DNA of 56,332 nucleotides from an uncultured Candidatus Saccharibacteria bacterium (GCA_964440955.1 CAYTTP010000003.1:1-56332); one strand, 5' to 3'. Positions 5,224 through 55,077 are shown, numbered from the stretch's first letter. A program made the numbers and translations. The notes: generated from the sequence alone by a model not told the origin.

Positions 5224-6507
5224 ATGACCAAATTTCAGGTTTTTCTTTTTGGGACTTTCCTGGTTTTTATAGTTGTTGGGGTTTTCATATTTTCAAACTA
5301 TAGAGGTGACTCTGAAGGTTCGGTGCCGGTCGTCGTTTGGGGTACTCTACCTACCAACACTTTTCAGTCGGCTGTCCAGGTGTCGGGTTTATATCAAAAC
5401 GAAAGTTACTCGGTGACCTATGTCGAAAAAAGTGAGGACTCTATCGATGCTGATTTTATTGAAGCGCTTGCTTCTGGCAGTGGTCCCGACCTATTTTTGC
5501 TTCCATCAAACAAAATAATCCTCCATCGCAACAAAATTTATGCCTTGCCTTACGACTTAATCACCGAACGTGATTTTAAGGATTATTTTATCGAAGGTAG
5601 TGAAATATACATGACGCCCGAAGGTGTGGTCGGCTTGCCGCTTTTGGTCGACCCGCTTGTCATGTATTGGAATAGGGATATTTTCACCGATGTCGGCCTA
5701 GTCGCCACACCAAAATATTGGGACGAATTTTTTGATCTTGCGGCTAAGATTTCAGTCAAGGATGGAGCTCTCAATGTTTCAAGGAGCGCAGTCGCTTTTG
5801 GCGAGTATGCAAACATTGCAAACGCCAAAGACATAGTGTTAAACCTTGCCCTTCAAGCTGGGACACCTATCACTATTTGGGAAAATGGCAAGGTAAGGAG
5901 TGTCTTTGCGGAGTCTTTGGGCAAGCCGACGGTCCCAGGGGACGCGGCGGTCAATTTTTATACCGAATTTAGCAACCCATCAAAAGCTTCGTACTCGTGG
6001 AATCGCGCCCTCCCCAACTCGACCAATTTTTTTCTAGCTGGTGACTTGGCTCTATATTTTGGCTTTGCAAGTGAAATCGGAACTTTGCAGCTCAAAAATC
6101 CAAACCTCAATTTTGATGTCGCAAGTACTCCTCTTTCGCGTGAAGGCGGGGTCAATGTTTCGCTCGGCAACTATCTTGGAGTGTCTGTGGTTAAAGCTTC
6201 AAAAAATCCAGCAGCTGCTTACGCTGTTGCCTCCATATTGGCTGGTACCGATAGTGTGAAAGCTCTCTCTCAAGCTCTTGATTTGCCACCGGCAAGGCGC
6301 GATTTGCTAAGTGAGAGGCAAGTAAGCGCACATCGTAGTGTGTTTTATACAAGTGCCATCCGCTCACGCAGCTGGCTTGACCCTTCACCCAAGGTTTCAA
6401 ATACTATTTTTAAAGACATGATAGAATCAATCACGAGCGGTCGAGCTCGGGCGGGGGAGGCAGTGACCCGCGTAGAGCGTGAATTAAATGCCTTGTTCAA
6501 CAAATAA
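5224..6507 (+). CDS. extracellular solute-binding protein (ABC-type, family 1-like)
   Basis: N-terminal transmembrane/signal segment followed by a periplasmic-binding-protein-like sequence (VVVWGTLP..., GSGPDLFLLPSNKI...). Confidence 0.45.
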   Translation: MTKFQVFLFGTFLVFIVVGVFIFSNYRGDSEGSVPVVVWGTLPTNTFQSAVQVSGLYQNESYSVTYVEKSEDSIDADFIEALASGSGPDLFLLPSNKIILHRNKIYALPYDLITERDFKDYFIEGSEIYMTPEGVVGLPLLVDPLVMYWNRDIFTDVGLVATPKYWDEFFDLAAKISVKDGALNVSRSAVAFGEYANIANAKDIVLNLALQAGTPITIWENGKVRSVFAESLGKPTVPGDAAVNFYTEFSNPSKASYSWNRALPNSTNFFLAGDLALYFGFASEIGTLQLKNPNLNFDVASTPLSREGGVNVSLGNYLGVSVVKASKNPAAAYAVASILAGTDSVKALSQALDLPPARRDLLSERQVSAHRSVFYTSAIRSRSWLDPSPKVSNTIFKDMIESITSGRARAGEAVTRVERELNALFNK

Positions 6508-6514
6508 AAAATAA

Positions 6515-6952
6515 ATGAATCGTCAAAATTTTAAAAAAGTTTTCACTATTGTTTTGGTACTTGCTCTTGTGGCGAGCGTCATCCTACCTCTCTTCACTTC
6601 GGCTCAAACCACTGATGATTCTAATCCACTCGTCCCTTGCGGTGGTCCTGGCCAAAAAGCTTGTGGCTATTACGACTTGTTGCGACTTGTGAACAATCTC
6701 ATTGATTGGGTGATCAAAATATCCATCCCTATTTCGGCCGGCATTTTTGCTTGGGCAGGTATTCAATATATGATGACGGGTGTTATGGACAAAAAAGCTC
6801 AAGCCAAAAAAATGCTAATGAATACCTTTTGGGGTTTTGTTTTTATTCTCTCTGCTTGGATTATAGTGTCGCTTGTGATAAATACCTTGCTCAATCCGGA
6901 GTATCGGGCTGATGTTGATGATACAATAAATCTAACCAAACCAACCAACTAA
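6515..6952 (+). CDS. TrbC/VirB2-like pilin family protein (paralog 1 of 8)
   Basis: Signal peptide, Cys pair, two hydrophobic helices AGIFAWAGIQYM...FWGFVFILSAWIIVSLV separated by a charged loop; same architecture as the downstream paralogs. Confidence 0.45.
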   Translation: MNRQNFKKVFTIVLVLALVASVILPLFTSAQTTDDSNPLVPCGGPGQKACGYYDLLRLVNNLIDWVIKISIPISAGIFAWAGIQYMMTGVMDKKAQAKKMLMNTFWGFVFILSAWIIVSLVINTLLNPEYRADVDDTINLTKPTN

Positions 6953-6954
6953 CC

Positions 6955-7371
6955 ATGAAAACATTTTTTAAAAAATATTTTTTTGTTTCGCTGATTACTT
7001 GTATTCTATCTTTGTCCTTTTTACCAAGCAGTTTATACTCTCAAGATGGTGGCAATCCTGGTGCTGGGGGTGGTAATCCGGGAGGTGGTTCCTCTTACCC
7101 AATCAAAATAGCAAACCCATTTAAACAAAGCAGTATCACCGACCTTATCACTATAATCATCAAAGAAATATTGATGCCAATAGGGGCAGTGATTGCGGTA
7201 CTTATGATCATGTATGCTGGTTTTATGTATGTTACTGCTCAAGGCAATTCAACTAAAATCACCGAAGCCACTAAAGCTCTCAAATATGCCGTCATCGGCT
7301 CAGCCATCCTTATCGGCGCTTGGACTATTTCCGAAGCTATTAGGGCGACTGTCGGTCAATTAAGGGTATAA
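6955..7371 (+). CDS. TrbC/VirB2-like pilin family protein (paralog 2, Gly-rich N-terminal region)
   Basis: Signal peptide, GGNPGAGGGNPGGG low-complexity stretch, two-helix hairpin IGAVIAVLMIMYAGFMYV...AVIGSAILIGAWTI. Confidence 0.45.
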   Translation: MKTFFKKYFFVSLITCILSLSFLPSSLYSQDGGNPGAGGGNPGGGSSYPIKIANPFKQSSITDLITIIIKEILMPIGAVIAVLMIMYAGFMYVTAQGNSTKITEATKALKYAVIGSAILIGAWTISEAIRATVGQLRV

Positions 7372-7387
7372 TTAAAACTCTAACAGG

Positions 7388-7669
7388 ATGAAAAACTTAA
7401 CCGAATTTATAACTTTTTTTACCGATATGGGGCTTAGGCTTGTACCACTATTTGCTGTCCTCGCCTTCATGTATTTTGTGTGGGGAGTAGCACGCTTCAT
7501 CAAAGCGGCGGGCAATGAAAAAGAGGTGGGGGACAGCAAAAAGATACTTATTTGGGGTGTTGTCGGCCTACTCGTGCTTACAAGTATTTGGGGTATTATT
7601 TCCTTTCTCAAAGGTGAGCTAAGATTTGGCGACAATGTTGGTATTCCTCAAATAAAATTTGAAAATTAG
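7388..7669 (+). CDS. TrbC/VirB2-like pilin family protein (paralog 3)
   Basis: FMYFVWGVARFIKAAGNEKE...ILIWGVVGLLVLTSIWGIISFLKG. Confidence 0.5.
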   Translation: MKNLTEFITFFTDMGLRLVPLFAVLAFMYFVWGVARFIKAAGNEKEVGDSKKILIWGVVGLLVLTSIWGIISFLKGELRFGDNVGIPQIKFEN

Positions 7670-7679
7670 ATGAAATAAA

Positions 7680-7949
7680 ATGAATGATTTTATTGATAAA
7701 GGTTATTCGATTATCACCAATACTCTCATCCCGCTTGGGTACTTTGTTTGCCTCTTTTACTTTGCTTGGGGTATTGCAAAGTACATCAAATCGATCGGTG
7801 ACGGCAAGGAGCAGGGCAGGCAAATAATGATTTGGGGAGTAGTTGGCCTTTTTGTAGTTACGAGTATTTGGGGTATTATTGAATTTATAAAGCTCGAAGT
7901 TGGCTTGCCTTTCGATAATTCAGAGCTCGATGCAAAAGTTTATAGGTAA
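7680..7949 (+). CDS. TrbC/VirB2-like pilin family protein (paralog 4)
   Basis: YFAWGIAKYIKSIGDGKEQGRQIMIWGVVGLFVVTSIWGIIEFIK. Confidence 0.5.
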   Translation: MNDFIDKGYSIITNTLIPLGYFVCLFYFAWGIAKYIKSIGDGKEQGRQIMIWGVVGLFVVTSIWGIIEFIKLEVGLPFDNSELDAKVYR

Positions 7950-7961
7950 AAATATAAAAAC

Positions 7962-8318
7962 ATGAAAAATAATTTTAAAAAAATAATTCCGGTTTCCCTC
8001 TTCCTTTTACCAATTTTAACAAGCGCTCAACTTGATGGGACAGACAAATTTTTTGGGAAAGCAAAGTCAATCGTAAGTGATACTTTGGTACCAGGAGCAT
8101 TTTTTGTAGCCCTCGTGTATTTCTTCTACGGTATCGCCAAATACATCAAGTCTGAAGGTGCCGGCAAAGCCGAAGGCAAAATGATCATGGTGTGGGGAGT
8201 GGTCGCTTTGTTTGTTGCTTCGTCAGTTTGGGGTTTGGTCACTCTTTTACAAAAGGAAATAGGGATAAACAGTAACCCTGGCAGTATGAAAATACCAACT
8301 TTAGAAACATATAGATAA
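7962..8318 (+). CDS. TrbC/VirB2-like pilin family protein (paralog 5)
   Basis: Signal peptide; YFFYGIAKYIKSEGAGKAEGKMIMVWGVVALFVASSVWGLVTLLQ. Confidence 0.5.
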   Translation: MKNNFKKIIPVSLFLLPILTSAQLDGTDKFFGKAKSIVSDTLVPGAFFVALVYFFYGIAKYIKSEGAGKAEGKMIMVWGVVALFVASSVWGLVTLLQKEIGINSNPGSMKIPTLETYR

Positions 8319-8323
8319 TATTT

Positions 8324-8620
8324 ATGCTTACAAACACCGAAACTTTTTTGAATCAAGCTATTACTCTTTTGACCAATAGAGTCATACCTATTGTCTTTAT
8401 CCTCGCTACGCTCTACTTCTTTTGGGGCATTGTCAAATACATCAAGTCGGAAGGTGCTGGCAAAGCTGAAGGAAAAGCCATTATGGTGTGGGGAGTAGTA
8501 GCCCTTTTTGTGATGACTAGCGTATGGGGCATCGTTCGCTTGTTGAGAGTTGATTTGCTTAGTGGGCAGGACACCAACAGTATCCAAATCCCAACCGCCA
8601 CTTACGGTACTACTCGCTAA
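8324..8620 (+). CDS. TrbC/VirB2-like pilin family protein (paralog 6)
   Basis: YFFWGIVKYIKSEGAGKAEGKAIMVWGVVALFVMTSVWGIVRLLR; near-identical core to paralog 5. Confidence 0.5.
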   Translation: MLTNTETFLNQAITLLTNRVIPIVFILATLYFFWGIVKYIKSEGAGKAEGKAIMVWGVVALFVMTSVWGIVRLLRVDLLSGQDTNSIQIPTATYGTTR

Positions 8621-8751
8621 CCACTTCCCACCTACTCCCTACTCCCTCTGTGGATTACTTTTTGCTTGCAAAGGCAAAAAATGGTAAAGTAATGGTAAAT
8701 TAAAAATGTTTATTCATTTTAATTATTATTAAAAAGTATTTGCTAAATTAA

Positions 8752-9096
8752 ATGAAAAAAGTATCTATAGCAGTAGCGATGGCTCTTTTGCCACTTTCAA
8801 CCTTTGCCCAACAGCTCGGCAATATCAGCAACTTAGTTGATAGCGCAAGCGGTATAATCAATAAGGTTATACCTATATTGTTTACACTTGCTTTGCTCGG
8901 CTTCTTTTGGGGCTTGGTCAGATTTCTTTTTGGTGGTGCTGAAGACAAGGATCAGGCAAAAAACATTATGATTTGGGGCGTAGTAGCGCTTGCGGTCATG
9001 GCTTCAGTTTGGGGATTGGTCAACTTCCTTGGTTCGGCATTTAACATCAACAAGGATGCCGCTCCTTCTGTAAACCCTCTTATTCCAAAACCTTAG
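8752..9096 (+). CDS. TrbC/VirB2-like pilin family protein (paralog 7)
   Basis: Signal peptide; FFWGLVRFLFGGAEDKDQAKNIMIWGVVALAVMASVWGLVNFLG. Confidence 0.5.
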   Translation: MKKVSIAVAMALLPLSTFAQQLGNISNLVDSASGIINKVIPILFTLALLGFFWGLVRFLFGGAEDKDQAKNIMIWGVVALAVMASVWGLVNFLGSAFNINKDAAPSVNPLIPKP

Positions 9097-9118
9097 TTGG
9101 TCTTTGGTCTACAAAACA

Positions 9119-9150
9119 AAAGAGCCGTATTGTACGGCTCTTTTGTTTTC
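9119..9150 (+). terminator. rho-independent terminator
   Basis: aaagagccgta-ttg-tacggctcttt hairpin followed by a T-run. Confidence 0.6.
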
Positions 9151-9251
9151 CCTTGAATTTTATTACCTAACATTTAGAATTAGAAATATCACCCCTAGCC
9201 CCTCTTACTTTAAGAGGGGAACAACAACTTAATTTTTAATTTTCAATCCTT

Positions 9252-9515
9252 ATGCCTGTCATCAAAAGCTTGCTCAATCAAATAGCCACACTCTTTTTGA
9301 ACCCGCTCATCATTCTTGGTTTTGTTGTTGCTACACTCTATCTTTTTTGGGGTATTGGGCAAATGATACTAAACGCCGACTCAAGCAAGCTCGACGAACA
9401 TCGGAAGGGAGTTATTTGGGGCGTTGTTGGCTTACTTATCATGTTCTCCGTTTACGGCATTCTCCGTCTTGTTATCCAAACTTTTGAGATCGAGTGTAAT
9501 TTGTATTTTTGTTAG
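9252..9515 (+). CDS. TrbC/VirB2-like pilin family protein (paralog 8)
   Basis: LYLFWGIGQMILNADSSKLDEHRKGVIWGVVGLLIMFSVYGILRLV. Confidence 0.45.
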   Translation: MPVIKSLLNQIATLFLNPLIILGFVVATLYLFWGIGQMILNADSSKLDEHRKGVIWGVVGLLIMFSVYGILRLVIQTFEIECNLYFC

Positions 9516-9548
9516 TTCCATTTAGAAAAATAAAAAAATAAGCATGAA

Positions 9549-9574
9549 AAAAGGGGCGCTAGCGCGCCCCTTTC
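9549..9574. terminator. bidirectional GC-rich hairpin terminator between convergent genes
   Basis: aaaggggcgc-tagc-gcgcccctttt perfect hairpin with A-run and T-run on either side. Confidence 0.5.
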
Positions 9575-10353
9575 GGTGGGAAGAACATGATGCCCACCTC
9601 CATTTTGCCTGGGTCCCGCTTGCGAACCCAGAGTTTCTCGGCATTCAGATGCACCCGCACCTTTGCTGCTGGGTCGAAACTCCTCTTTTCTCCCCGCTCG
9701 TTCAGGTATTCGATTGCCTCTTTTGTCGAGATGTTGTAAGTCCAGTTTACAGGGATTGTGACCCCTCCATTAAAGGTCTCACTATCTACCTCCAATTTGT
9801 AGGAGAACTCCCTGCCGATCTTCGGCGCCCAGCACTGAGCACTTCCGTGCCAAGCGATGAGCCCGACTTCATGGTACATTTTGACCATCTTCTGAAACTT
9901 CTCCTGAGTCTCAAAAAGGTCGGTCTCACACATCGCGACGGCTCGGAGTTCTTTTGGAGCCTTTGAGAGCATTCGCTCAAAGTTTTTCCTCTCCTTGAAT
10001 TCTTTGGCGGTTAGATCTCCACGGTCTACCACCGTATATGCTGTGGTGAGGAAAGCCACAGCTAAGATTGCTCCTAACCATTTTGCTGCTTTTTGAGCAG
10101 TCGGGTGGGGCTTCTTATCTGGGCCTTCCAAGGTATTCAAGAGGGCAACAATGAAGATGCCTAAATTGAAGACAACCAGAGAAAGTCCAGAAAAAAACAA
10201 GATTCTCCACATCCATGGTATGGCCTGGGAGATCAGCACATTGGCTAAAACAAGAGAGCCAATAATGATGATGGTATTATTCTTAAGTCTCTGCTGCTCT
10301 TCGGGTGTACCCGCAAGCATCAGAAGAAGCTTCTTGATTTTATTTGTGTTCAT
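9559..10353 (-). CDS. hypothetical membrane protein
   Basis: Start moved to MNTNKIKK (AGAGAGG ribosome-binding site); three predicted transmembrane helices then a soluble C-terminal domain; no family recognised. Confidence 0.45.
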   Translation of the reverse strand: MNTNKIKKLLLMLAGTPEEQQRLKNNTIIIIGSLVLANVLISQAIPWMWRILFFSGLSLVVFNLGIFIVALLNTLEGPDKKPHPTAQKAAKWLGAILAVAFLTTAYTVVDRGDLTAKEFKERKNFERMLSKAPKELRAVAMCETDLFETQEKFQKMVKMYHEVGLIAWHGSAQCWAPKIGREFSYKLEVDSETFNGGVTIPVNWTYNISTKEAIEYLNERGEKRSFDPAAKVRVHLNAEKLWVRKRDPGKMEVGIMFFPPKGAR

Positions 10354-10437
10354 TTGTACCTCTCTTACCATTATATCATATTTAGATAAAAAGTAAAGGG
10401 CTACCGGAATCCGGTAGCCCTTGGTTGAAAGGGTTGC

Positions 10438-11895
10438 TTATGGGTGAGGTTTCGGTGTTGCTGTGGGGTTCGTGGGTGGGGGTGGGGCTGAAGTAGGAGT
10501 GGTTACTATGGTCTGTACTGCTTTGGTTAGTGATCCAATAATGGATAAATCCATCGGCAGGATCACACCTCCTTTCCCTTGACTGGCTTCAACTGCCGCT
10601 TCAGTTTTCACAATGAGTTCACCCATAGGTGAATCACCGAGTGCGGCAATCTTAGCTTTGATACCAGCGGCTTCAGCAAGCATGTCAGCTTGTTTAGCTG
10701 ATGCATTACCTGCTCCTTCGTTGATCTTCTTTTTCTTGTCACCTTCAGAGATGTTAATCGTCGACTGCCGGGTACCCTCTGAAGCAGTGACGATAGCGGC
10801 TTTTTTGTAGCCAGCCTCCACTGCGTGCGCCATCTCCTTATTGACGTCTTTGGGGAAACCAGGGTCTTTGATGGAGACACTGATTAGATTTACTCCTAGG
10901 TTCGGGTTGGGGTTAGTAAGGCCTTGTTGGCTATTCGGCTCCCCGATCAACTGTTCGATTCGGTATCTGATAATAGCGCAAACAATGTCTTTGTGTGCGT
11001 TCATCATACCTGCCGTCATGACACCGGTGAGCTCTTGGATTGTTCCCTTTGCCACATTAGCGATATTTCTACTCAGTGTTTCAATATCACCAAGAGTAGA
11101 AATGAACTTGCCAGCGTCCTCGATCCTGTATGACAGGATTAGGCGTGGTTCGCATGTGATGGCTTGGTGTAGTGGGTCGTTCTTTGATTTCCCGTACTTC
11201 TGCACTTCTGGTAATCCTATCCTTAGGGCATCTGGGATATTACCTATGGTCCCTTTTGCCAAGAGGAGAGCGTCTATCGACGGGAAAGTCACTCTGAATG
11301 GCGCTCTGTCCAGAAAAGTGTTGTTGATTTTATCATCCACAATTGCTTTTCCGAGTGTATCTGTAAGATGGGACCCAACCTCCGTTTGGATGACATTTTC
11401 AGTCACTGTCTCTATCCTGTTTAATAAGGCAAAGACATAGTATAGGCCAGGCCCGACCTTCCCCTTATTGCGTTCAAGTTGGAGTCTTACCCCAATTTCG
11501 CCAATGACGACTCTTTTGAAGCTTATCAGTACATGCAGTGTAACTGCGATGCATGCGAGAGGCAGCCAGTTTGACTCTTCATCGCTTAGCACCATCCCCA
11601 CCATGATTACGGTAGGGTATGTTACTAGCGCTAACAAGGCATCAATCTGTGATAACAATGACTGGGGCCCGTTTACGGGAGGTATGTACTTAAACAACCT
11701 CCTGCCGTAGTATATTGTGGCCACTAGCATCGCAATTCCCACGGCATAGATGATATTCCACGGGAAACCATAGGTGACTACGCTTTGTAGCCATCCCCAG
11801 ATTTCTTTCAGTCTTGCTACTGTGTTTATTACTGCCACGAGTAGCCCGAGGATACCACCGGCCCACCATGCAATCTTCTTCTTTCTGGGCGACAT
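10438..11895 (-). CDS. SPFH/band-7 (flotillin-like) domain protein
   Basis: N-terminal transmembrane helices then an SPFH-like core (RIETVTENVIQTEVGSHLTDTLGKAIVDDK...LGDIETLSRNIANVAKGTIQELTGVMTAGMMNAHKDIV), Ala/Lys coiled coil and a Pro-rich tail. Confidence 0.55.
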   Translation of the reverse strand: MSPRKKKIAWWAGGILGLLVAVINTVARLKEIWGWLQSVVTYGFPWNIIYAVGIAMLVATIYYGRRLFKYIPPVNGPQSLLSQIDALLALVTYPTVIMVGMVLSDEESNWLPLACIAVTLHVLISFKRVVIGEIGVRLQLERNKGKVGPGLYYVFALLNRIETVTENVIQTEVGSHLTDTLGKAIVDDKINNTFLDRAPFRVTFPSIDALLLAKGTIGNIPDALRIGLPEVQKYGKSKNDPLHQAITCEPRLILSYRIEDAGKFISTLGDIETLSRNIANVAKGTIQELTGVMTAGMMNAHKDIVCAIIRYRIEQLIGEPNSQQGLTNPNPNLGVNLISVSIKDPGFPKDVNKEMAHAVEAGYKKAAIVTASEGTRQSTINISEGDKKKKINEGAGNASAKQADMLAEAAGIKAKIAALGDSPMGELIVKTEAAVEASQGKGGVILPMDLSIIGSLTKAVQTIVTTPTSAPPPPTNPTATPKPHP

Positions 11896-24117: not shown

Positions 24118-26832
24118 ATGACGCCATTTAACCATTTTACTACCAAAGCCAAAGAAGCCATAAAACGTGCTCACGAGCTCGTTATTGAACGAGGCCAAAA
24201 CCACGTCGGACCACTCCAGCTTTTGACTGCTCTCATCTTGCAGGAGGAAAGTATGGTTGCCTCTATTTTGGATCGCCTGGAGGTTGATACCATCCTTCTC
24301 ACCGATTCTCTTTTTGATGCGATGGAGGGCGCGATTGTTGGCAATACTTCTACTCCTTCATATCAAATTTATTTGACGCCAGAGCTTGCGCATATTATCG
24401 AGCATTCTTCTAAGGTGGCTTCTTCGATGAACGATGAATTTGTCTCGACCGAGCACCTCTTTATTGCTTGTCTAGAAGTGCCAAGTCAGGCGCGCGACAT
24501 TCTTTCCAAATTCAAAATCGAAAAAGACAAAGTGATGTTTTTGATCCAAGAAATAAAAGAAGGGAGAGTCAACGAACCAAAACAGCCGCAAAAAAACAAA
24601 ACTCTGGTCAAATATACTCGCTCGCTCACCAAGCTTGCCAAAGAAAACAAGCTTGACCCGGTGATTGGTCGCGATGAGGAAATTTCCCGAATCATTCAAA
24701 TACTTTCACGTAGGACAAAAAACAATCCAATCCTCATCGGTGAGGCTGGGGTAGGCAAAACTGCTATCGCTGAAGGTCTTGCTATGCGCATGGCAAACGG
24801 TAATGTGCCTGAATCATTGAAGGACAAAGAAATAGTTTCCCTAGATTTGGGGTTGCTTGTCGCGGGTACCAAGTTTCGTGGTGAGTTTGAAGAACGTCTA
24901 AAAAATATAATCAAAGACATTGAAAAGTCAGAGGGCAAGATTATTTTGTTTATCGATGAAATCCACACTATCGTTGGTGCCGGTAGTGCTGAAGGTTCGC
25001 TCGATGCCTCCAATATGCTGAAGCCTCCACTTGCAAGAGGTGAGCTAAGGGCGATTGGCGCGACCACTATCAAGGAATATCAAAAACATATCGAAAAGGA
25101 CCCGGCCCTTACTCGTCGCTTTCAACCGGTGTATGTTTCCGAACCTTCAGTTGATGATGCGATCACTATTTTGCGTGGACTCAAAGAAAAGTACGAGCTC
25201 TATCACGGTGTCCATATAACTGATGATGCTATCAAGTCGGCTGTCAATCTTTCTTCTCGATATATTGCTGACAGGTTTTTGCCGGACAAAGCAGTTGACC
25301 TCATCGACGAAGCTGCTTCTCACCTCAAAATATCGTTGGAAAATATGCCACCTATTTTGCAAGAAACTAATTCTAAAATAGTAAAGCTTGAAATTGAGCG
25401 CGAAGCTTTGAAAAAAGAAGCAGAAAACAAAAATAGCAAAGCCAAAGCCCGCCTCCAAGAAATTGAAAAAGAGGTAGCTGATCTTAAGGAAAAGACCGGA
25501 GAGATAGATTTGAAATGGAAAAACGAAAAGGAGACTGTTGGTGAAATAAAGCGAATCAAAAAAGAGCTTGAATCTGCTCGCCTTGAAGCTGAGGCTGCTG
25601 AAGCACGGGTGGATTTGGGTCGAGCCGCTGAAGTACGCTACGGTAAGATACCAAGCTTAGAAAAGGACCTCGATACCAACGTCAAAAAACTCAAAAAACT
25701 CCAAAGCTCTCGTCGTATTTTGAAAGAGGAAATAACTGAAAATGATATTGCCAATATTGTAGCCAAATGGACGGGCATCCCAGTTTCTAGAATGCTTGAA
25801 GAAGAGGCTGAAAAACTTTCTCGAATGGAAGAAAATTTGAAAAAGAGAATCGTCGGTCAAGATGAAGCCGTCCAAAAAATTTCTGACACGATCAAACGCT
25901 CTCGTGCTGGTATTTCTGATCCAAATCGTCCGATCGGCTCCTTCATCTTTTTGGGTCCAACCGGAGTGGGAAAGACAGAGCTTACCAAAGCACTTGCCGA
26001 ATTTATGTTCAACGACGAGAAGGCGCTCATCCGTGTTGATATGTCCGAATTTATGGAAAAACACTCGGTTTCCAAGCTTATTGGCGCACCTCCTGGCTAT
26101 GTTGGTTTTGACGAAGGGGGTGGTATCACAGAGATGGTGCGTCACCGGCCGTATTCGATAGTTTTGTTCGACGAAATCGAGAAGGCTCACCCTGAAGTGT
26201 TTAACGTGCTCCTTCAAGTGCTCGACAATGGCCGACTTACCGACTCAAAGGGTCGCACTGTCAACTTCAAAAACACGATCATTATTATGACTTCAAATAT
26301 TGGTGCTCAATATATCGATAAGATGGAAAGGATGGGCTTTGGTGAAAATAGGAGTGATGAAAAAAATTATAATGATGTTAAAGACAGGGTGCTTGAAGCA
26401 ACCAAAGACTATTTCCGTCCGGAGTTTTTGAACCGCATTGACGACATTATTGTCTTTGATGTTTTGCCGATTGAAGCGATTCGCGATATCGTCCGCATTC
26501 AAGTTGATTTGGTCAAGGAGCGATTGGCTCAAAAAGAAATTTCTCTCGAGCTTTCTTCTGAAGCTTATGAATATCTTGCGAAAGAAGGTTACAATCCACA
26601 GTATGGTGCTCGCCCACTCAAGCGTGTAATCCAAAATAAGATTTTAAACAAAGTTGCTTCTCTCATTATAAGCAAGGGGATCATGAAAGGTGGCACAGTT
26701 TCTATTTCTGTCAAAAAATCAACCAATGCTTCAGGACCTGATGAACTTGTCTTTGATATCAAAAAAGGCCGTCGGGGTTCAATCATCGAAGCCTCTCTTC
26801 TCGACGACACCCCAAAAGAAACCGTGGTGTAA
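24118..26832 (+). CDS. clpB: ATP-dependent chaperone ClpB
   Basis: Two AAA+ modules ([15 protein letters not shown]; [16 protein letters not shown]), long middle coiled-coil, 904 aa. Confidence 0.9.
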
Positions 26833-27135: not shown

Positions 27136-28056
27136 TTGTATAAATCAAATAAAATAGGTTATCCTCTGTTCGGAGGCCTTGTGGATAAACCTGCATTTGA
27201 AAGGTATTTTCTGAGAGATGTAAATCATCAGAGTGGTAGGGTGAAAAATCGAGAAATTTTTGCTCCAAACGATTCAATGCGTGAGGTGCAAGAGGGTATA
27301 GTGGCCAAACTTCGGTCTTTGGAGATTGAGATGCCGAGCGCGACTGGTGGTGTCAGGAATGGTTCGCCAGTCAATAACGTCCTCAAACATTGGTCACCTT
27401 ACAATAAGAGTGCGAGATACTTTTTTCTGCTTGATCTAGCATCTGCTTACAAGAATGTCCTTGTGAGCGATATGTTAGTTGAACTGAAGAGGGTGTGGCC
27501 ACATGATTGCGACGAGAAGTTTGTTCAGAGTGTTATGAATCACTGCTTGATACCGGGTGAGGGTTTGGCAACTGGAGGTAACGCCTCGCCAGATATTTTC
27601 AACCTATGTATGGAGATTTCGATTGATCGGCAAATACGCTCGTATGCCGAATACAACGATCTCACCTACACTCGTTATCTCGATGATCTGACTTTCTCAT
27701 CTCCTTTTCCGATAGGTAAGAGGAAGAGGAATACGATCATCAAGATTCTCACTGAAGCTGGTTGTGTCGTTAACCATCAAAAGTCTCAGGTGCTTGATAT
27801 CGAAAAGCATCATGTGGAAATAAATGGTATCGGCTTGCGTCGTAGCGGACACTTCTTCATGCCTAGTCGGGTCTTGGATGAGTTAAAAAACTTGCTCTAT
27901 CGGGCAACTAGAGGGGAGTCCATTTCCGATTCTCTCATTCAAGGCAAGATGGGCGGGTTCATCTATCTTAGGAGAAAAGGCTTGCTTGCTCTGACCGAGA
28001 GAGAACGTAATATCCTTCGACGGTACGAGCAATATCTGCCGTTGCGCCGGGGTTAA
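27136..28056 (+). CDS. reverse transcriptase, retron-type (RT domains 1-7 with YTRYLDD)
   Basis: RT motifs REIFAPNDSMREVQEGI, SATGGVRNGSPVNNVLKH (NAxxH-like), FLLDLASAYKNV, GLATGGNASPDIFN (QGxxxSP-like), YTRYLDDLTF (retron-like YTRYADD), VEINGIGL (VTG-like). The likelier start is GTG at 27181 after GGAGG; the ORF track begins at TTG 27136. Confidence 0.75.
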   Translation: MYKSNKIGYPLFGGLVDKPAFERYFLRDVNHQSGRVKNREIFAPNDSMREVQEGIVAKLRSLEIEMPSATGGVRNGSPVNNVLKHWSPYNKSARYFFLLDLASAYKNVLVSDMLVELKRVWPHDCDEKFVQSVMNHCLIPGEGLATGGNASPDIFNLCMEISIDRQIRSYAEYNDLTYTRYLDDLTFSSPFPIGKRKRNTIIKILTEAGCVVNHQKSQVLDIEKHHVEINGIGLRRSGHFFMPSRVLDELKNLLYRATRGESISDSLIQGKMGGFIYLRRKGLLALTERERNILRRYEQYLPLRRG

Positions 28057-28130: not shown

Positions 28131-28535
28131 ATGTCCAGTATCTCGAATAGAGAAATGACATTTGTTGTAGCTGTTCTGTACTCTTTGCCCGAAAAGTGGC
28201 GAGGGGTTGGCCGTTCTTTCTCGTTTGAGGATGTGCAAGATAGGCTACATCTTGCTTGGCATAGACTCTATCAAGAAGGATTGCTTGGGGAGTTTGGTGA
28301 ATCGTTTTCTTTTGACGCTCTTTGTGGCTCAGACAGTCTTGGGCAAGCACTTCGCACAGCTGCGGTAGATGGGCTCATAAGGATCGGTGGCTCTGATATG
28401 GCTTATCATGTTGATGTCCTGAAGCCTGACCAAATTGATCGTATGTTAGAGTCGTGCGTAATAGACCGAAGTGCCGTGACTACTGCTGTCAAACGTCTCG
28501 AAGCTATTCTCGAAGAGAAACCCTCCCCGGCTTAG
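28131..28535 (+). CDS. hypothetical small acidic protein downstream of the RT (candidate retron accessory/effector)
   Basis: 134-aa ORF with strong GGAGGAGGTG ribosome-binding site, 75 nt after the RT stop; no recognisable family. Confidence 0.45.
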   Translation: MSSISNREMTFVVAVLYSLPEKWRGVGRSFSFEDVQDRLHLAWHRLYQEGLLGEFGESFSFDALCGSDSLGQALRTAAVDGLIRIGGSDMAYHVDVLKPDQIDRMLESCVIDRSAVTTAVKRLEAILEEKPSPA

Positions 28536-31986: not shown

Positions 31987-33495
31987 ATGAGCAATCAACA
32001 ACGCATAGGGGCACTTATCAAAAGTCTTAGGGAAAGGAGAGGTCTCACTCAGCAGGAATTTGCAAAACACCTTAAGACTTCACAGAGTGCGGTAGCGCGA
32101 ATGGAAAGTGGTAATCAAAATTTTACTTCTAAAGAAATAGAGAAAATAAGTGAGGCATTAGATCGCAAGATAATAGCTCTCGATGAAAGTATCGATTTTA
32201 AGATTGAGGGTGGGTATCGTCTTAAAGGTTCTGTTGATACAAACCCATCTAAAAATGGTGCGTTGGGTTTGCTTTGTGCTTCTCTTTTAAACAAATCAAA
32301 GACTACACTTCATGGTATTCCAAAGATTGAGGAAGTTTTTCGTTTGATCGAGGTTTTTAAGAGTATTGGCATTTCTGTCTCTTGGGTTGGTCCTCAATCA
32401 TTAGAAATAATTCCTCCAAAAAAATTTAGTATAAAAAATATAAATAATAAATCTGCTGGCAAAATACGCTCAGTCCTCATGATGATTGGTGCCTTGATTC
32501 ATCACGAAAAGGAGTTTCGCATACCACATGCTGGTGGTTGCAAAATGGGCGAGCGAACAATAGAAGCTCATCGGCACGGACTCAACTCACTCGGTGTTTC
32601 TATTATGACAGGTGAAGATTCTTATAAAATTTCTAGTGGTAAATTGTCCGCTACTCCTATTGTCATGTATGAATCAAGTGATACCGCGACAGAAAACATT
32701 TTGATAGCTGCCTCACTTATACCTGGCAAAACAGTCATTGAATTTGCTCCGCCAAATTACCAAGTACAGGAAGTTTGTTTTTTCTTGGAGACTTGCGGAG
32801 TAAAGATTGAAGGTATCGGTACAACCACGCTTACTGTACATGGTGTGTCTCAAATAGATAGACCGATCGAGTATCACAATAGCGAAGACCCGATTGAATC
32901 GATGATGTTTATCTCGGCTGGTATCACTACTAATTCGACGCTTACTATAAAGAGATGCCCCTATGATTTTTTGAAATTGGAAATGCTCAAACTAAAGAAG
33001 ATGGGGTTGAAGTACAAAATGAGTAAGCAATATTTTTCGCACAACGGTCGAACAAAACTTGTTGATATAACGGTCTACCCATCAAAGCTAGTGGCTCCAA
33101 GTGATAAGATACATGCTCAACCATACCCAGGTATAAACTCTGACAACCTTCCGTTTTTTGTACCGATTGCTACTCAAGCAGAAGGGCGCACTCTCATCCA
33201 TGATTGGATGTGGGAAAATAGAGCTATCTATTTTACTGAAATCAATAAACTTGGAGGTTCAGTAGCGCTCGCTGATCCACATAGGGTATTTGTAAACGGA
33301 CCAACCAAACTTTCAGGTACTCAAGTAGTTTGTCCACCGGCACTACGTCCAGCAATGATTATTTTGATTGCAATGCTTTCAGCTAAGGGGACATCGATCC
33401 TTCGAAATGTATACTCGATTTATCGTGGTTATGAGGAAATAGCAGAGCGTCTCAACGCTCTCGGTGCTAAAATACAAGTAATAAAAGGAATGTAA
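31987..33495 (+). CDS. murA: UDP-N-acetylglucosamine 1-carboxyvinyltransferase fused to an N-terminal XRE-type helix-turn-helix domain
   Basis: Residues 1-60 ALIKSLRERRGLTQQEFAKHLKTSQSAVARMESG form an HTH_3 domain; the remainder is MurA (IEGGYRLKGSVDTNPSKNGALGLLCASLL ... C-terminal EPT fold). Confidence 0.8.
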   Translation: MSNQQRIGALIKSLRERRGLTQQEFAKHLKTSQSAVARMESGNQNFTSKEIEKISEALDRKIIALDESIDFKIEGGYRLKGSVDTNPSKNGALGLLCASLLNKSKTTLHGIPKIEEVFRLIEVFKSIGISVSWVGPQSLEIIPPKKFSIKNINNKSAGKIRSVLMMIGALIHHEKEFRIPHAGGCKMGERTIEAHRHGLNSLGVSIMTGEDSYKISSGKLSATPIVMYESSDTATENILIAASLIPGKTVIEFAPPNYQVQEVCFFLETCGVKIEGIGTTTLTVHGVSQIDRPIEYHNSEDPIESMMFISAGITTNSTLTIKRCPYDFLKLEMLKLKKMGLKYKMSKQYFSHNGRTKLVDITVYPSKLVAPSDKIHAQPYPGINSDNLPFFVPIATQAEGRTLIHDWMWENRAIYFTEINKLGGSVALADPHRVFVNGPTKLSGTQVVCPPALRPAMIILIAMLSAKGTSILRNVYSIYRGYEEIAERLNALGAKIQVIKGM

Positions 33496-49893: not shown

Positions 49894-52311
49894 ATGACTT
49901 TCAAACACTTGCAGGAAATTTCGGTCCCTCATTTCTACGCTCTTGCGATTGATCGTTTTTTGCCAGAGAGGGTGAGGTTATTTTTGCGATATCTAGCTCT
50001 TGTGACCGCAGCTGTTTCTTTTGCTTCTTCGTTTGGCTCTCTCCCTCTATATTTTGGTTATGGTGATGCGATTTTCTTTTTGAGTATTTCTATTTATCTT
50101 TTGCTTTCCTGTCTTGAGTTTTTTTATCGTTCCAGCAAAAACGAAGGTATAGGTCGGATGCGGATAATAGAAAATATCGCGGGCGGCCCAGAGATAGATT
50201 ATAGTCTTTCTTCTATTATTTTTGCCACTGACGAGATAGATGCGACTCGCGCTATTTTTGAAACAAAAGTTGGCAAGGAGGTGCTTTTGCGAAGCGGACT
50301 CTCTCTTGAAATGATCCAAAAATTTATCCATTCGGATCGACATCCCATCATTTCCTCTTCACTTTCGTATGGTGATGGTGAAGTAGTTGGTTTTGTATCG
50401 TATCTTGAAACTATCTACGAAGCCGACGAAAGCTTCCGTTCTTTTTTGTCGAGGTATGCAGTCACTCGAGAAGATTTTTTGGGAGCGGCCGCTTGGGTTG
50501 GTCATAAAGAAGCCAAAAAGAGAAGGGAAAATCGTTTTTGGAGCAGGGAAAATTTGGGAGCTATCCCCTCGATTGGTACGAGTTGGGCTTATGGTATGCC
50601 CTATGATTTAAACGAATATGGCCGACCTTTCAATGACGCCCTGCTTGTGCCGATAGATCTTGAAAATGGTTATCGTCAAAAAGAAGTAGAAACTTTGGAA
50701 GGTGTGCTGACGCGAGTGAGCGAAGCAAATGCGATAATAATAGATGACGACGAGAGTGTGGTTCGGGATATTTTGGCGCGCTTTGTCAAAAACATAAAGC
50801 TCGGCACCATCATGCCAGCTCTCGAACACAAACAACTTATTGAGCTTGATTGGCAGTCGCTTGTTTCTAATTTTAAAGACAAATCAGCTTTCGAAAACCA
50901 ATTTATGAAAATAATGCAGGAGTCGGCTCTTGCTGGCAATGTTTTGCTTTATATTCCCGACTTGTCTGGATTTATTTCTAGATTAAAAAATGCGGGCATC
51001 AATCTGTCTTCACTTATTTCGCCATACCTTGCTTCTTCAAGACTTCATATTATCACTCACGCAACGACAGCCGACTTTCATTTTTTTATTGAAACGAGTA
51101 GCGCTTTGCTTGGCAGGTTTGAGCGTATCATTCCTGAGCCGGCAGGCGCTCCGGCTACTACTTCTGTTTTGCTTGAGCAATCAACTATTTTGGAAGAGAG
51201 ATACCAGATTATTTTTTCGTATCCTTCACTTGTTTCGCTTGTTGAAGCGGCGGAGCGGTTTGTTACCTATGGAGAGATGCCGGGCAAGGCTTTGGATTTG
51301 ATTTATGAGATTGCGCCTTGGGCAGCTGAAAAAGGAGACGATATAGTTTCTAAACAAGATGTTGCTGTTTTTGTTTCAGGCAAGACAGGTATCAAAACAG
51401 GCGAAATACAAGCTGATGAGATGGAGCGGATCGAGCATCTCTCGGAGGCTTTGCACAAGCGAGTAGTCGGTCAAAACGAAGCGGTAGAGGCGGTGGTTGG
51501 TGCTATTCGTCGTTCGCGTTCGGGGATAGGCAATCCAAAGCGTCCAATTGCCTCCTTTTTGTTTTTGGGTCCGACCGGAGTGGGCAAAACCGAAGTATCA
51601 AAGGCGCTTGCTGAGAGTTTTTTTGGTGATGAACATAAGATGATTCGTTTTGATATGTCAGAGTACGATGCACCCGACGCTCTACCTCGCCTTATTGGCA
51701 ATTTTGCGGAAAACAAAAAAGGCATACTCGCGAGCAAGGTTCGCGACAATCCATACAGTGTTCTCTTGCTCGATGAGTTTGAAAAAGCTTCGCCAGATGT
51801 ACTCGATTTGTTTTTGCAGGTACTCGACGAGGGAGTTTTTAGTGATGCGGAAGGTAAACCGGTTGGTTGTCGAAACTTGATTATTATTGCAACCTCAAAT
51901 GCTGGAGCGGAATATATTTGGGAAAAAGCAAAAACTGGAAGTTTGGTAGCAGCGAAGGACGAGATTGTGGACAATATAGTTAAAGACCATGTGTTTAAAC
52001 CAGAACTTCTAAACCGTTTTGATGGTGTTATTTTATTTCATCCGCTTGAAAAGACTGATCTCGAACATGTGACTCGTATTGGCTTGGAAAAATTGGTCTC
52101 TCGTCTCAAAGAAAAAAATATTGAATTTGTCGTTTCTGATTTTTTGGTTAAACATGTAGCGGCAAAAGGTGAGGATCCAAAGTTTGGTGGGCGGGCGATC
52201 AATCGCGCTATTCAAAGCGAGGTGGAGGATGTGGTTGCGCGAAAAATAGTGAGTGGGGAGGTGAAGCCGGGTTCTAAATTGGAGCTTACTCAAGCTGATT
52301 TCAATAGTTGA
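49894..52311 (+). CDS. Clp/Hsp100-family AAA+ ATPase with N-terminal transmembrane anchor, degenerate first ATPase domain (D1) and intact second domain (D2)
   Basis: Two N-terminal transmembrane helices. No Walker A in the D1-equivalent region. C-terminal half matches ClpA/ClpB D2 ([75 protein letters not shown]). Confidence 0.65.
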   Translation: MTFKHLQEISVPHFYALAIDRFLPERVRLFLRYLALVTAAVSFASSFGSLPLYFGYGDAIFFLSISIYLLLSCLEFFYRSSKNEGIGRMRIIENIAGGPEIDYSLSSIIFATDEIDATRAIFETKVGKEVLLRSGLSLEMIQKFIHSDRHPIISSSLSYGDGEVVGFVSYLETIYEADESFRSFLSRYAVTREDFLGAAAWVGHKEAKKRRENRFWSRENLGAIPSIGTSWAYGMPYDLNEYGRPFNDALLVPIDLENGYRQKEVETLEGVLTRVSEANAIIIDDDESVVRDILARFVKNIKLGTIMPALEHKQLIELDWQSLVSNFKDKSAFENQFMKIMQESALAGNVLLYIPDLSGFISRLKNAGINLSSLISPYLASSRLHIITHATTADFHFFIETSSALLGRFERIIPEPAGAPATTSVLLEQSTILEERYQIIFSYPSLVSLVEAAERFVTYGEMPGKALDLIYEIAPWAAEKGDDIVSKQDVAVFVSGKTGIKTGEIQADEMERIEHLSEALHKRVVGQNEAVEAVVGAIRRSRSGIGNPKRPIASFLFLGPTGVGKTEVSKALAESFFGDEHKMIRFDMSEYDAPDALPRLIGNFAENKKGILASKVRDNPYSVLLLDEFEKASPDVLDLFLQVLDEGVFSDAEGKPVGCRNLIIIATSNAGAEYIWEKAKTGSLVAAKDEIVDNIVKDHVFKPELLNRFDGVILFHPLEKTDLEHVTRIGLEKLVSRLKEKNIEFVVSDFLVKHVAAKGEDPKFGGRAINRAIQSEVEDVVARKIVSGEVKPGSKLELTQADFNS

Positions 52312-54656: not shown

Positions 54657-54729
54657 TGGTTGCCTAAGGGGTGATGTTTCTGGTACAATGCTCTCGTTCT
54701 TTGAAATTCCAAAAATTAGATTTTTTTGC

Positions 54730-55061
54730 TCCGGGATAGCTCAGCGGTAGAGCGAGCGACTGTGTCGTGACGCAGCTTCCAAAAGAAATTTTGGTTGAAA
54801 AACGAGGTGAATTCGGGGGAACCCCAAGTGGGCAATCCCGAGCCAATCCTAAATTAAAGAAAGATATTGTTGTGTAAAAACTTTAATTAAGGCAGGTGTA
54901 GAGACTATTCCGAAAGGAAGTACTTACTCCGTATTTCGGAGTCGGGAAGCGCCTCGCTCCTAATAGCCAATTTGGTTAAAGGAGATGATATAGTCCATAC
55001 TTCTAGTAATAGAAGAGAATATGTAATCGCTTGGTCGTAGGTTCGATCCCTACTCCCGGAG
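54730..55061 (+). tRNA. tRNA-Asn (anticodon GTT) interrupted by a group I intron in the anticodon loop
   Basis: 5' exon 54730-54763: tccggga-ta-gctc-agcggta-gagc-g-agcga-ctgt. 3' exon 55024-55061: taa-tcgct-tggtc-gtagg-ttcgatc-cctac-tcccgga-g. U1:A72 and G73 fit Asn; the 5' splice site follows a U and the intron ends in G. Confidence 0.7.
54764..55023 (+). other. group I self-splicing intron (~260 nt) within tRNA-Asn
   Basis: Conserved core elements R-like GTAGAGACTA (about 54897), S-like GATATAGTCC (about 54988), P-like AATTCGGGGGAA; the internal guide GCAG can pair with the exon end CTGT (U-G at the splice site); no ORF inside. Confidence 0.6.
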
Positions 55062-55077
55062 CAAAGGAATTTAATAT

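Follow-up and report, generated by a model that had tools for sequence, protein, structure and literature searches.

An ordered array of eight T4SS_pilin-family hairpin proteins coupled to a binding-protein gene in a Paceibacteria-like genome

What do eight consecutive genes for one kind of small membrane protein do in a member of the Patescibacteria, which have very small genomes and live upon other cells? We addressed this question with a stretch of DNA of 56,332 nucleotides (GCA_964440955.1 CAYTTP010000003.1:1-56332, deposited under an uncultured Candidatus Saccharibacteria bacterium; hereafter the window), which holds a tandem array of eight short open reading frames (ORFs). A reading of the array made without database searches (the sequence-only reading) had called the products TrbC/VirB2-like pilin paralogs, akin to the pilins of type IV secretion systems (T4SS), and had suggested that they could provide antigenic or functional variation of a pilus or surface filament. 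Our analysis describes the pilin set, for Paceibacteria, as a conserved and ordered kit of differentiated parts, tied to a sugar-type binding protein. With moderate confidence, we take the locus to encode this binding protein together with eight differentiated pilin-superfamily subunits that co-assemble, most likely into the pilus or conduit of a monoderm-type T4SS.

Eight related hairpin proteins in one array

Inspection of the window confirms eight consecutive ORFs of 87-145 aa, all on the plus strand (Table 1). Copies 1-6 are tightly packed with gaps of 2-16 nt, and gaps of 131 nt and 155 nt lie ahead of copies 7 and 8, respectively. Mutual identity among the eight copies is 17-58%. The array is also present in three independent Logan assemblies and, because it recurs in these and in 80 other species-level genomes, it is not a product of chance.

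All eight copies are mutually alignable and share two hydrophobic helices with a short K/E/G-rich loop between them. The motifs quoted in the sequence-only reading (YFFWG..KYIKS, EGAGKAEGK and IMVWGVVALFV..S.WG) are found in the array proteins. An AlphaFold2 model of copy 6 consists of a helix at 3-41, a turn and a helix at 46-79 (mean predicted local distance difference test score 79.7). Copies 1, 2, 5 and 7 carry a third, N-terminal hydrophobic segment that ends in A-Q/S-Q and is signal-peptide-like by hydropathy only. Copies 3, 4, 6 and 8 have no such segment, and preceding stop codons preclude an upstream extension.

Beyond the common hairpin, individual copies carry features of their own, several of which can be followed in the 22 positional orthologs described below. 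In copy 1, the signal-peptide-like N-terminus is followed by an extracytoplasmic segment whose conserved Cys pair, ahead of helix 1, is kept in almost all 22 orthologs, and then by the two-helix hairpin. Copy 2 places a Gly/Pro-rich linker and a conserved I-x-I-x-NPFK motif, taken from the ortholog alignment, between its signal-peptide-like N-terminus and the hairpin; the Gly-rich insert attributed to it is present (GGNPGAGGGNPGGGSS). Copies 3 and 4 are hairpins without a signal peptide; copy 3 ends in a conserved GIPQI tail, and at its position the third hydrophobic segment is absent in 21 of the 22 orthologs. Copies 5 and 7 each consist of a hairpin plus a signal-peptide-like N-terminus. Copy 8 is a hairpin only, with a C-terminal C-x-x-x-F-C; about half of the orthologs have a C-terminal Cys pair of this type (C-x-x-x-FFC). 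Conserved tails that contain Pro (GIPQI, IPT, LIP) are found at the C-termini of orthologs, which is only a hint of N- or C-terminal processing.

Copies 5 and 6, which the sequence-only reading had described as near-identical in the core, are similar there, although that wording overstates the case: identity is 53% overall, 36/44 residues (82%) in the core and 92/132 nucleotides over the same stretch, with the same codon used at only 17 of the 36 identical residues. As judged from this alignment, the pair is a duplicate of one array position in which the protein core was conserved, and the duplication is old because synonymous sites have diverged. Unlike its duplicate copy 5, copy 6 has no signal peptide, and most related arrays hold a single gene where the window carries both.

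Profile searches assign the array to a pilin family. All eight copies match PF18895 (T4SS_pilin) with E-values of 2e-10 to 1e-4, and five of them exceed the Pfam gathering cut-off of 26.6 bits (copy 1, 39.4; copy 2, 41.0; copy 3, 31.0; copy 6, 32.5; copy 7, 36.7 bits). Copies 4, 5 and 8 fall below it (25.9, 22.7 and 24.2 bits) and are 36-58% identical to copies that pass. With the TrbC/VirB2 model PF04956 (cut-off 27.9 bits), copy 2 scores 30.3 bits over profile positions 18-95 of 98 and is the most TrbC-like member, copy 1 remains sub-threshold at 18.3 bits, and the other six give no match. Alignment of the copy 2 ortholog profile with the core-type profile by hhalign yields 94.5% probability (E 8e-8). 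The same ortholog profile aligned with Agrobacterium tumefaciens VirB2, a query checked to be 100% identical to PDB 8cue, gives an E-value of 0.07, which is not significant, with the helices in register. NCBI names close relatives 'pilin'. The VirB2/TrbC pilin family claim is borne out by the eight PF18895 matches, by copy 2 and by these names; going by the profile scores, PF18895 membership of the array is secure, and the case for TrbC/VirB2 proper depends on copy 2. The whole NCBIfam model NF045849, the 'pilin-like conjugal transfer protein' of mycoplasma integrative and conjugative elements, is also matched by six copies (E 1e-7 to 9e-4; 19-31 bits, with a cut-off of 40 bits). The array copies are thus not members of this model family, which may mark the monoderm branch within the same superfamily.

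We also considered whether unrelated small membrane proteins (holin-like, bacteriocin-immunity or PilA-type) might mimic VirB2 topology. The two-helix hairpin is a generic fold, such that fold searches were non-discriminating; a PDB sequence search with the paralog profile returned no pilin, its matches being chance similarities between hairpins (signal peptidase complex subunit 2, E 0.01), and three copies lie just under the Pfam cut-off. However, none of the eight copies matched a holin, immunity or phage family in Pfam at E up to 1 or in PHROGs at E up to 0.01. The holin-like and bacteriocin-immunity families, which the sequence-only reading had itself raised, are thus not represented among these matches, the phage or holin reading is ruled out by the empty PHROGs search, and the neighbours of the array are housekeeping genes. 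The class III leader G/F-T-L-I-E of PilA-type pilins is in none of the eight sequences, which likewise gave no type IV pilus match in Pfam and lack a PilD-type processing site. Homology extends across all copies and reaches TrbC through copy 2, and we consider mimicry by an unrelated family scarcely credible. Profiles of two further T4SS components, VirB3 and PrgI (PF12666), were not among the Pfam matches of the eight copies at E up to 1.

Array positions and fused forms in related genomes

To compare the array among related genomes, a pattern scan was run over one genome per GTDB species, which gave 173 confirmed relatives, of which the best 80 loci were used. These loci come from Zambryskibacteria, Vogelbacteria, Kaiserbacteria and other 'Parcubacteria', and those relatives that are named in a published table belong to class Paceibacteria in GTDB (part of the supplement of PMC12102498). 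Arrays are present in all 80 loci with 2-8 copies, 79 of them with 4-8: two genes occur in one locus, four in 16, five in eight, six in 22, seven in 30 and eight in three. Some of these arrays are interrupted by contig ends, leaving 66 that are untruncated.

Each related gene was typed by its best window paralog (w1 to w8 for copies 1 to 8). The order w1 w2 w3 w4 w5/6 w7 w8 is found in 22 loci, and the same order with a doubled position 5 in two more. Among untruncated arrays, the first gene is w1- or w2-type in 66/66 and the last is w8-type in 54/66. For the 22 canonical seven-gene arrays, which were chosen for sharing the window's order, the best foreign match lies at the same array position for 154/154 proteins. 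Orthologs are 44-62% identical (medians per position) versus approximately 32% for paralogs within one genome, and the presence of a signal peptide is position-specific. These alignments make every array position an ortholog group of its own, maintained from species to species.

A second line of evidence comes from proteins in which array modules are joined. A profile search of 1.84 billion cluster representatives retrieved 30,213 family relatives at E up to 1e-3, again counted as cluster representatives, and many of the top matches are single polypeptides with 2-7 hairpin modules. Each of these multi-module proteins begins with a single signal peptide, and neither start-like nor signal segments are seen further inside. 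'Poly-pilins' of 3-7 modules include P0064, P0126 and P0219, and also P0063, P0133, P0098 and P0142. The fusions recur across several samples and sources, and all three that were examined for genomic context (P0064, P0126 and P0219) sit at the same binding-protein-plus-array locus in other Paceibacteria lineages. With modules typed by position-specific hidden Markov models, locus L088 reads gyrA, methyltransferase, binding-protein gene, w1-type, w2-type, 3-module fusion, core-type and w8-type. Locus L084 has a similar layout but with two core-type singles after its 3-module fusion, and L086 has a 7-module fusion followed by five singles. No multi-module ORF lies within the 80 related loci, so that the fusions belong to other lineages. 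The middle copies of the array have repeatedly been fused in evolution.

These results favour differentiated, co-operating paralogs over interchangeable ones, because array positions are orthologous across genomes, motifs are position-specific, and modules that are separate in one lineage are fused in another, in the manner of a 'Rosetta stone'. The opposing explanation is that the copies are interchangeable variants of a major subunit that serve antigenic or host-range variation, as proposed for VirB2 of Bartonella and Anaplasma. It draws on the low identity within the array, which resembles that of 441 published VirB2 arrays of 2-11 genes in 383 Patescibacteria assemblies (average 25%, maximum 54%; Quinonero-Coronel et al. 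2025, PMC12102498, of which the main text and parts of the supplement are covered here and below). It also agrees with the number of core-type copies, which differs between lineages (arrays of 4-8 genes), and with the finding that the most variable parts of the array proteins are the predicted outward-facing N- and C-terminal tails.

The variation, however, lies between positions and not between genomes, with motifs and a signal-peptide state proper to each position, and the synonymous divergence of copies 5 and 6 indicates no recent amplification or gene conversion. The fusion of modules in one chain in other lineages likewise speaks against this explanation. No invertible promoter or repeat-mediated switching element turned up, although no search for one was made. 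Experimental data are available for Southlakia epibionticum ML1, in which SEML1_0014-0019 are six PF18895 genes that were each scored essential by transposon sequencing (Wang et al. 2023, PMC10633639, in the parts of that paper covered here and below); this individual essentiality agrees with non-redundancy, with polar effects of the transposons possible. We therefore regard interchangeable variants as unlikely, and the claim of antigenic variation made for the window is not supported.

The coupled binding-protein gene and the signals of the locus

The sequence-only reading missed a gene that is coupled to the array. It encodes a solute-binding-protein-like product with SBP_bac_8 (E 5e-18, 66.2 bits) and SBP_bac_1 (E 1e-17, 65.6 bits) domains, both above the Pfam cut-off, and its nearest solved relatives are sugar/oligosaccharide ABC binding proteins (4qrz, E 3e-8). 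Its N-terminus reads as a hydrophobic membrane anchor. The stop codon lies 7 nt ahead of copy 1, and this gene is probably the first of the operon. A homolog directly precedes the array in 74/74 loci whose sequence extends far enough in that direction, the remaining six of the 80 arrays lying at most 320 nt from a contig end, and also in L084, L086 and L088; its distance to the array has a median of approximately 2 nt, often with overlap. Membership in an ABC importer is not supported, because the window holds no ABC permease or ATPase gene. The corresponding gene cluster has 112 members in 75 loci (L004-L083), where many relatives carry two tandem paralogs and the window carries one. A small methyltransferase gene lies between gyrA and the binding-protein gene in the three fusion-bearing loci.

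Inspection of transcription signals reveals that copy 7 is a separate unit with its own spacer and strong terminator. A spacer of 71-202 nt (median approximately 100 nt) precedes w7 in 22/22 canonical arrays, versus medians of 6-21 nt for the gaps after genes 1-4. In the window, this AT-rich spacer contains a weak promoter-like site at 8700-8729 (9/12 consensus positions) and no significant hairpin (z -0.95). Downstream of copy 7 lies an intrinsic-terminator-like hairpin of -23.3 kcal/mol (z -5.6), with 0/200 shuffles as stable. Post-w7 hairpins of -16 to -31 kcal/mol occur in 17/22 canonical loci, and four of the other five have spacers of 3-32 nt. The last array gene is trailed by stable hairpins in 22/22 canonical loci. 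For the window, the fold of 9516-9590 reaches -21.2 kcal/mol (z -2.7), and the GC-rich hairpin within it is probably a bidirectional terminator that closes the locus.

The surroundings are those of a chromosome. Conserved synteny runs from S1, lactamase_B_3 and gyrA through the binding-protein gene and the array to a convergent unknown gene, SPFH/Band_7 and infB, and the window as a whole carries housekeeping genes (gyrA, infB, clpB, mur genes, topA, parB, relA/spoT, serS and ten tRNAs). GyrA is 76-85% identical to GyrA of related loci with the window's gene order, several of which are named Zambryskibacteria. We propose that this operon belongs to the core genome of a Paceibacteria (Zambryskibacteria-like) bacterium and has been inherited vertically.

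Two genes on the minus strand face the end of the array (Table 1). The first encodes a membrane protein with no family match, and the second encodes an SPFH/Band_7 protein, which occupies this downstream convergent place in approximately 49 of the 80 related loci and also in L086 and L088. The placement of the SPFH gene may reflect either a functional link to the hairpin proteins pooled in the membrane or mere synteny. A match of the SPFH product to TrbI (19.5 bits, cut-off 35) was treated as chance.

Further features of the window lie apart from the array. A group I intron (Rfam RF00028, 78 bits) interrupts the anticodon loop of a tRNA gene that is not reported by ARAGORN; the exon junction CTGT|TAA gives a putative anticodon GTT (Asn). 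A reverse transcriptase gene (RVT_1) is followed by a 134-aa ORF without a family match, upstream of tRNA-Tyr. A diversity-generating retroelement is not evident there, as no template/variable repeat of at least 40 nt lies within 22-31 kb. Within the mur cluster, a MurA-like enzyme of the EPSP_synthase family carries an N-terminal Xre-type HTH_3 domain, which is an unusual fusion. Of two ClpB-like genes, the second encodes a protein whose Pfam matches are confined to the D2 AAA module and the D2-small domain at the C-terminus, the N-terminal half of approximately 550 residues being unmatched.

Table 1. Coordinates of the array, its signals and other features; positions refer to the window unless another locus is named.
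Feature	Position	Strand	Description
Binding-protein gene	5224-6507	+	solute-binding-protein-like, 427 aa; SBP_bac_8 and SBP_bac_1 domains; N-terminal anchor
Copy 1 (w1)	6515-6952	+	ORF, 145 aa
Copy 2 (w2)	6955-7371	+	ORF, 138 aa
Copy 3 (w3)	7388-7669	+	ORF, 93 aa
Copy 4 (w4)	7680-7949	+	ORF, 89 aa
Copy 5 (w5)	7962-8318	+	ORF, 118 aa
Copy 6 (w6)	8324-8620	+	ORF, 98 aa
Spacer before copy 7	8621-8751	+	AT-rich, 131 nt; possible internal promoter
Copy 7 (w7)	8752-9096	+	ORF, 114 aa
Hairpin after copy 7	9113-9149	+	intrinsic-terminator-like; perfect 17-bp stem, 3-nt loop, U-rich tail
Promoter-like site	9153-9180	+	TTGAAT-16-TAGAAT; consensus scan 9/12, weak
Second hairpin ahead of copy 8	9199-9219	+	-14.1 kcal/mol, z -3.6
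Copy 8 (w8)	9252-9515	+	ORF, 87 aa
GC-rich hairpin	9550-9573		between copy 8 and the convergent gene; stem AAAGGGGCGC/GCGCCCCUUU
Convergent gene	9559-10371	-	membrane protein, 270 aa; no family match
SPFH/Band_7 gene	10438-11895	-	485 aa
First ClpB-like gene	24118-26832	+	
Reverse transcriptase gene	27136-28056	+	RVT_1, 306 aa
ORF after reverse transcriptase	28131-28535	+	134 aa
MurA-like gene	31987-33495	+	502 aa
Second ClpB-like gene	49894-52311	+	805 aa
Split tRNA gene	54728-55062	+	group I intron at ~54754-55016
Fused protein, locus L084	2906-3979		3 modules
Fused protein, locus L086	10001-11821		7 modules
Fused protein, locus L088	8001-9062		3 modules

The proposed structure and known systems

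For the structure built from these parts, we favor the following mechanism. Each protein would enter the cytoplasmic membrane as a hairpin of helices, its short basic loop facing inward and its two termini facing outward. In four copies a Sec-type signal peptide would direct insertion and thereby fix the orientation, and in the other four a short N-terminal tail would have to be translocated. The paralogs would then be distinct subunits assembled in fixed proportions into one envelope structure, most likely the pilus or conduit of a monoderm-type T4SS encoded elsewhere on the chromosome and dependent on VirB4. Within it, w1 and w2 would be specialized first members, w8 a specialized last member and w3-w7 core-type subunits. 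The product of w7 is probably the abundant (major) structural subunit because it has its own spacer and terminator, and w7-type genes are the type most often multiplied in distant arrays. The binding protein would act together with the assembly, for example as its tip or partner or by serving as a receptor that recognizes glycans on the host surface. This proposal leads to predictions on stoichiometry, on the major subunit and on a possible host-glycan receptor, and it raises the question of whether the array needs VirB4.

Support for a T4SS role comes largely from related bacteria. In Southlakia, the PF18895 series adjoins VirB4 (0008), PrgI (0010) and VirB6-like genes, and the T4SS together with the pilin series is essential for growth on the host (PMC10633639). 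A VirB2-like gene lies near virB4 in 1135 assemblies of the 2025 survey, in which Paceibacteria are among the best-represented classes and their virB4 usually lies near dnaA (PMC12102498). Of the pilus claim itself, family membership stands, and pilus formation is an inference, here as in the literature. The suggested relevance to an epibiotic lifestyle has its experimental precedent only in Saccharibacteria, namely in Southlakia.

Several observations weigh against this T4SS assignment. None of the scanned window ORFs of at least 120 aa is a VirB4-, VirB11- or VirD4-like gene, and the 56-kb window holds no VirB4, VirB6 or PrgI gene, which agrees with the statement of the sequence-only reading that no secretion ATPase lies in the window and that the machinery is encoded elsewhere. 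Likewise, no T4SS gene was found within approximately 10 kb of the array among the recurrent neighbour clusters of the 80 loci or the called genes of L084, L086 and L088; the recurrent clusters, searched for VirB4-like genes, consisted of housekeeping genes and SPFH only. The argument usually made for a T4SS role, that of genomic linkage, is thus lacking. A look-up of VirB4 elsewhere in the genomes was in part positive: in the portion of the published listing covered, VirB4 is recorded for 5/9 named draft assemblies with the locus and not for the other 4/9, which are drafts of 444-643 kb and maybe incomplete. So far, a T4SS pilus has not been observed in any patescibacterium, and a 2025 review treats a monoderm T4SS pilus in Patescibacteria as only 'potential' and as an open question. 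Finally, four copies have no signal peptide, and the fused forms of 6 to 14 helices are hard to reconcile with a classical pilus built by extraction of single subunits, unless they are cleaved or act as concatemers; a membrane-embedded complex would accommodate such proteins no less well than a filament.

These same observations bear on a further explanation, whereby a VirB2-like ancestor gave rise to a T4SS-independent membrane bundle, ring or channel that is never extruded and that acts with the binding protein in ligand receipt or signalling. The invariable coupling to a sugar-type binding protein in a window without ABC permease or ATPase genes would fit such a complex, as would the missing T4SS neighbourhood at all loci examined, the polytopic fusions, the incomplete record of VirB4 and the conserved membrane-scaffold (SPFH/Band_7) gene downstream. 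However, the helices are hydrophobic, aromatic and Gly-rich and lack the conserved polar or charged residues within the membrane that transporters need, and we know of no transporter built from two-helix hairpins. Saccharibacteria homologs, moreover, lie inside the T4SS cluster and share its essentiality, and the frequent proximity of VirB2-like genes to virB4 points the same way. Overall, we judge a T4SS-independent complex improbable. A broader idea, doubtful but worth stating, is that the binding protein and the ordered hairpin set (w1, w2, a number of core modules that are sometimes fused, and w8) form a phylum-specific organelle derived from a conjugative pilin and perhaps free of a T4SS, whether as a heteromeric filament with a sugar-binding host receptor at its tip or base or as a conduit for host glycans or metabolites.

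Among known systems, the closest are the arrays already published for Patescibacteria, whose definition (at least two tandem PF18895/PF04956 genes of low identity) describes the window array, which also matches them in copy-number range and within-array identity (PMC12102498). Those arrays are most abundant in Microgenomatia and Saccharimonadia, and the survey suggests host-range versatility by analogy to Bartonella and Anaplasma. It was centred on virB4 neighbourhoods, and its main text and the parts of its supplement covered describe no gyrA-linked, binding-protein-coupled Paceibacteria locus, positional orthology or fusions. Nor did a literature search yield a paper that links VirB2 with solute-binding proteins in Patescibacteria. 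The fused forms, the orthology by position and the invariable binding-protein partner are therefore additions to the literature covered.

The window array and that of Southlakia are both tandem, same-strand series of PF18895 genes for proteins of approximately 100-185 aa that are divergent in sequence and structurally alike, and in both, the TrbC and DUF6112 models also pick up some of the proteins (PMC10633639). Southlakia, however, has six genes beside T4SS genes with no binding-protein gene in front, whereas the window has eight genes with a binding-protein gene directly upstream and no T4SS gene within 56 kb. Similarities to diderm VirB2/TrbC/TraA pilins (8cue, 8exh) comprise two hydrophobic helices and a short basic loop and, in four copies, a segment that resembles a signal peptide by hydropathy; the window differs in its eight paralogs, half of them without a signal peptide, and in its monoderm-type cell. 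The Mbov_0395 family (NF045849) of mycoplasma integrative and conjugative elements likewise comprises small proteins with two helices that serve conjugation in a monoderm, and the window copies that match it all score under the cut-off.

Other systems provide analogies at a greater distance. The major and minor pilin sets of type IV pili and type II secretion are comparable in function only, as the protein family is unrelated. PilA, FimU-PilVWXE and PilY1 represent an ordered operon of small pilins with one abundant subunit, in which accessory subunits may carry a binding protein. Diderm T4SS have one pilin gene per system, placed in the T4SS operon next to virB3/virB4, and the T-pilin and TrbC are cyclised. 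Binding proteins that feed into T4SS biology include ChvE, acting with VirA in Agrobacterium, and PrgZ in pCF10, with no homology of role claimed here. The VirB2 clusters of Bartonella and Anaplasma phagocytophilum resemble the window in having several tandem, diverged copies (cited in PMC12102498). In contrast to those clusters, which have been read as a means of antigenic variation in animal pathogens, the window copies represent stable ortholog groups across species.

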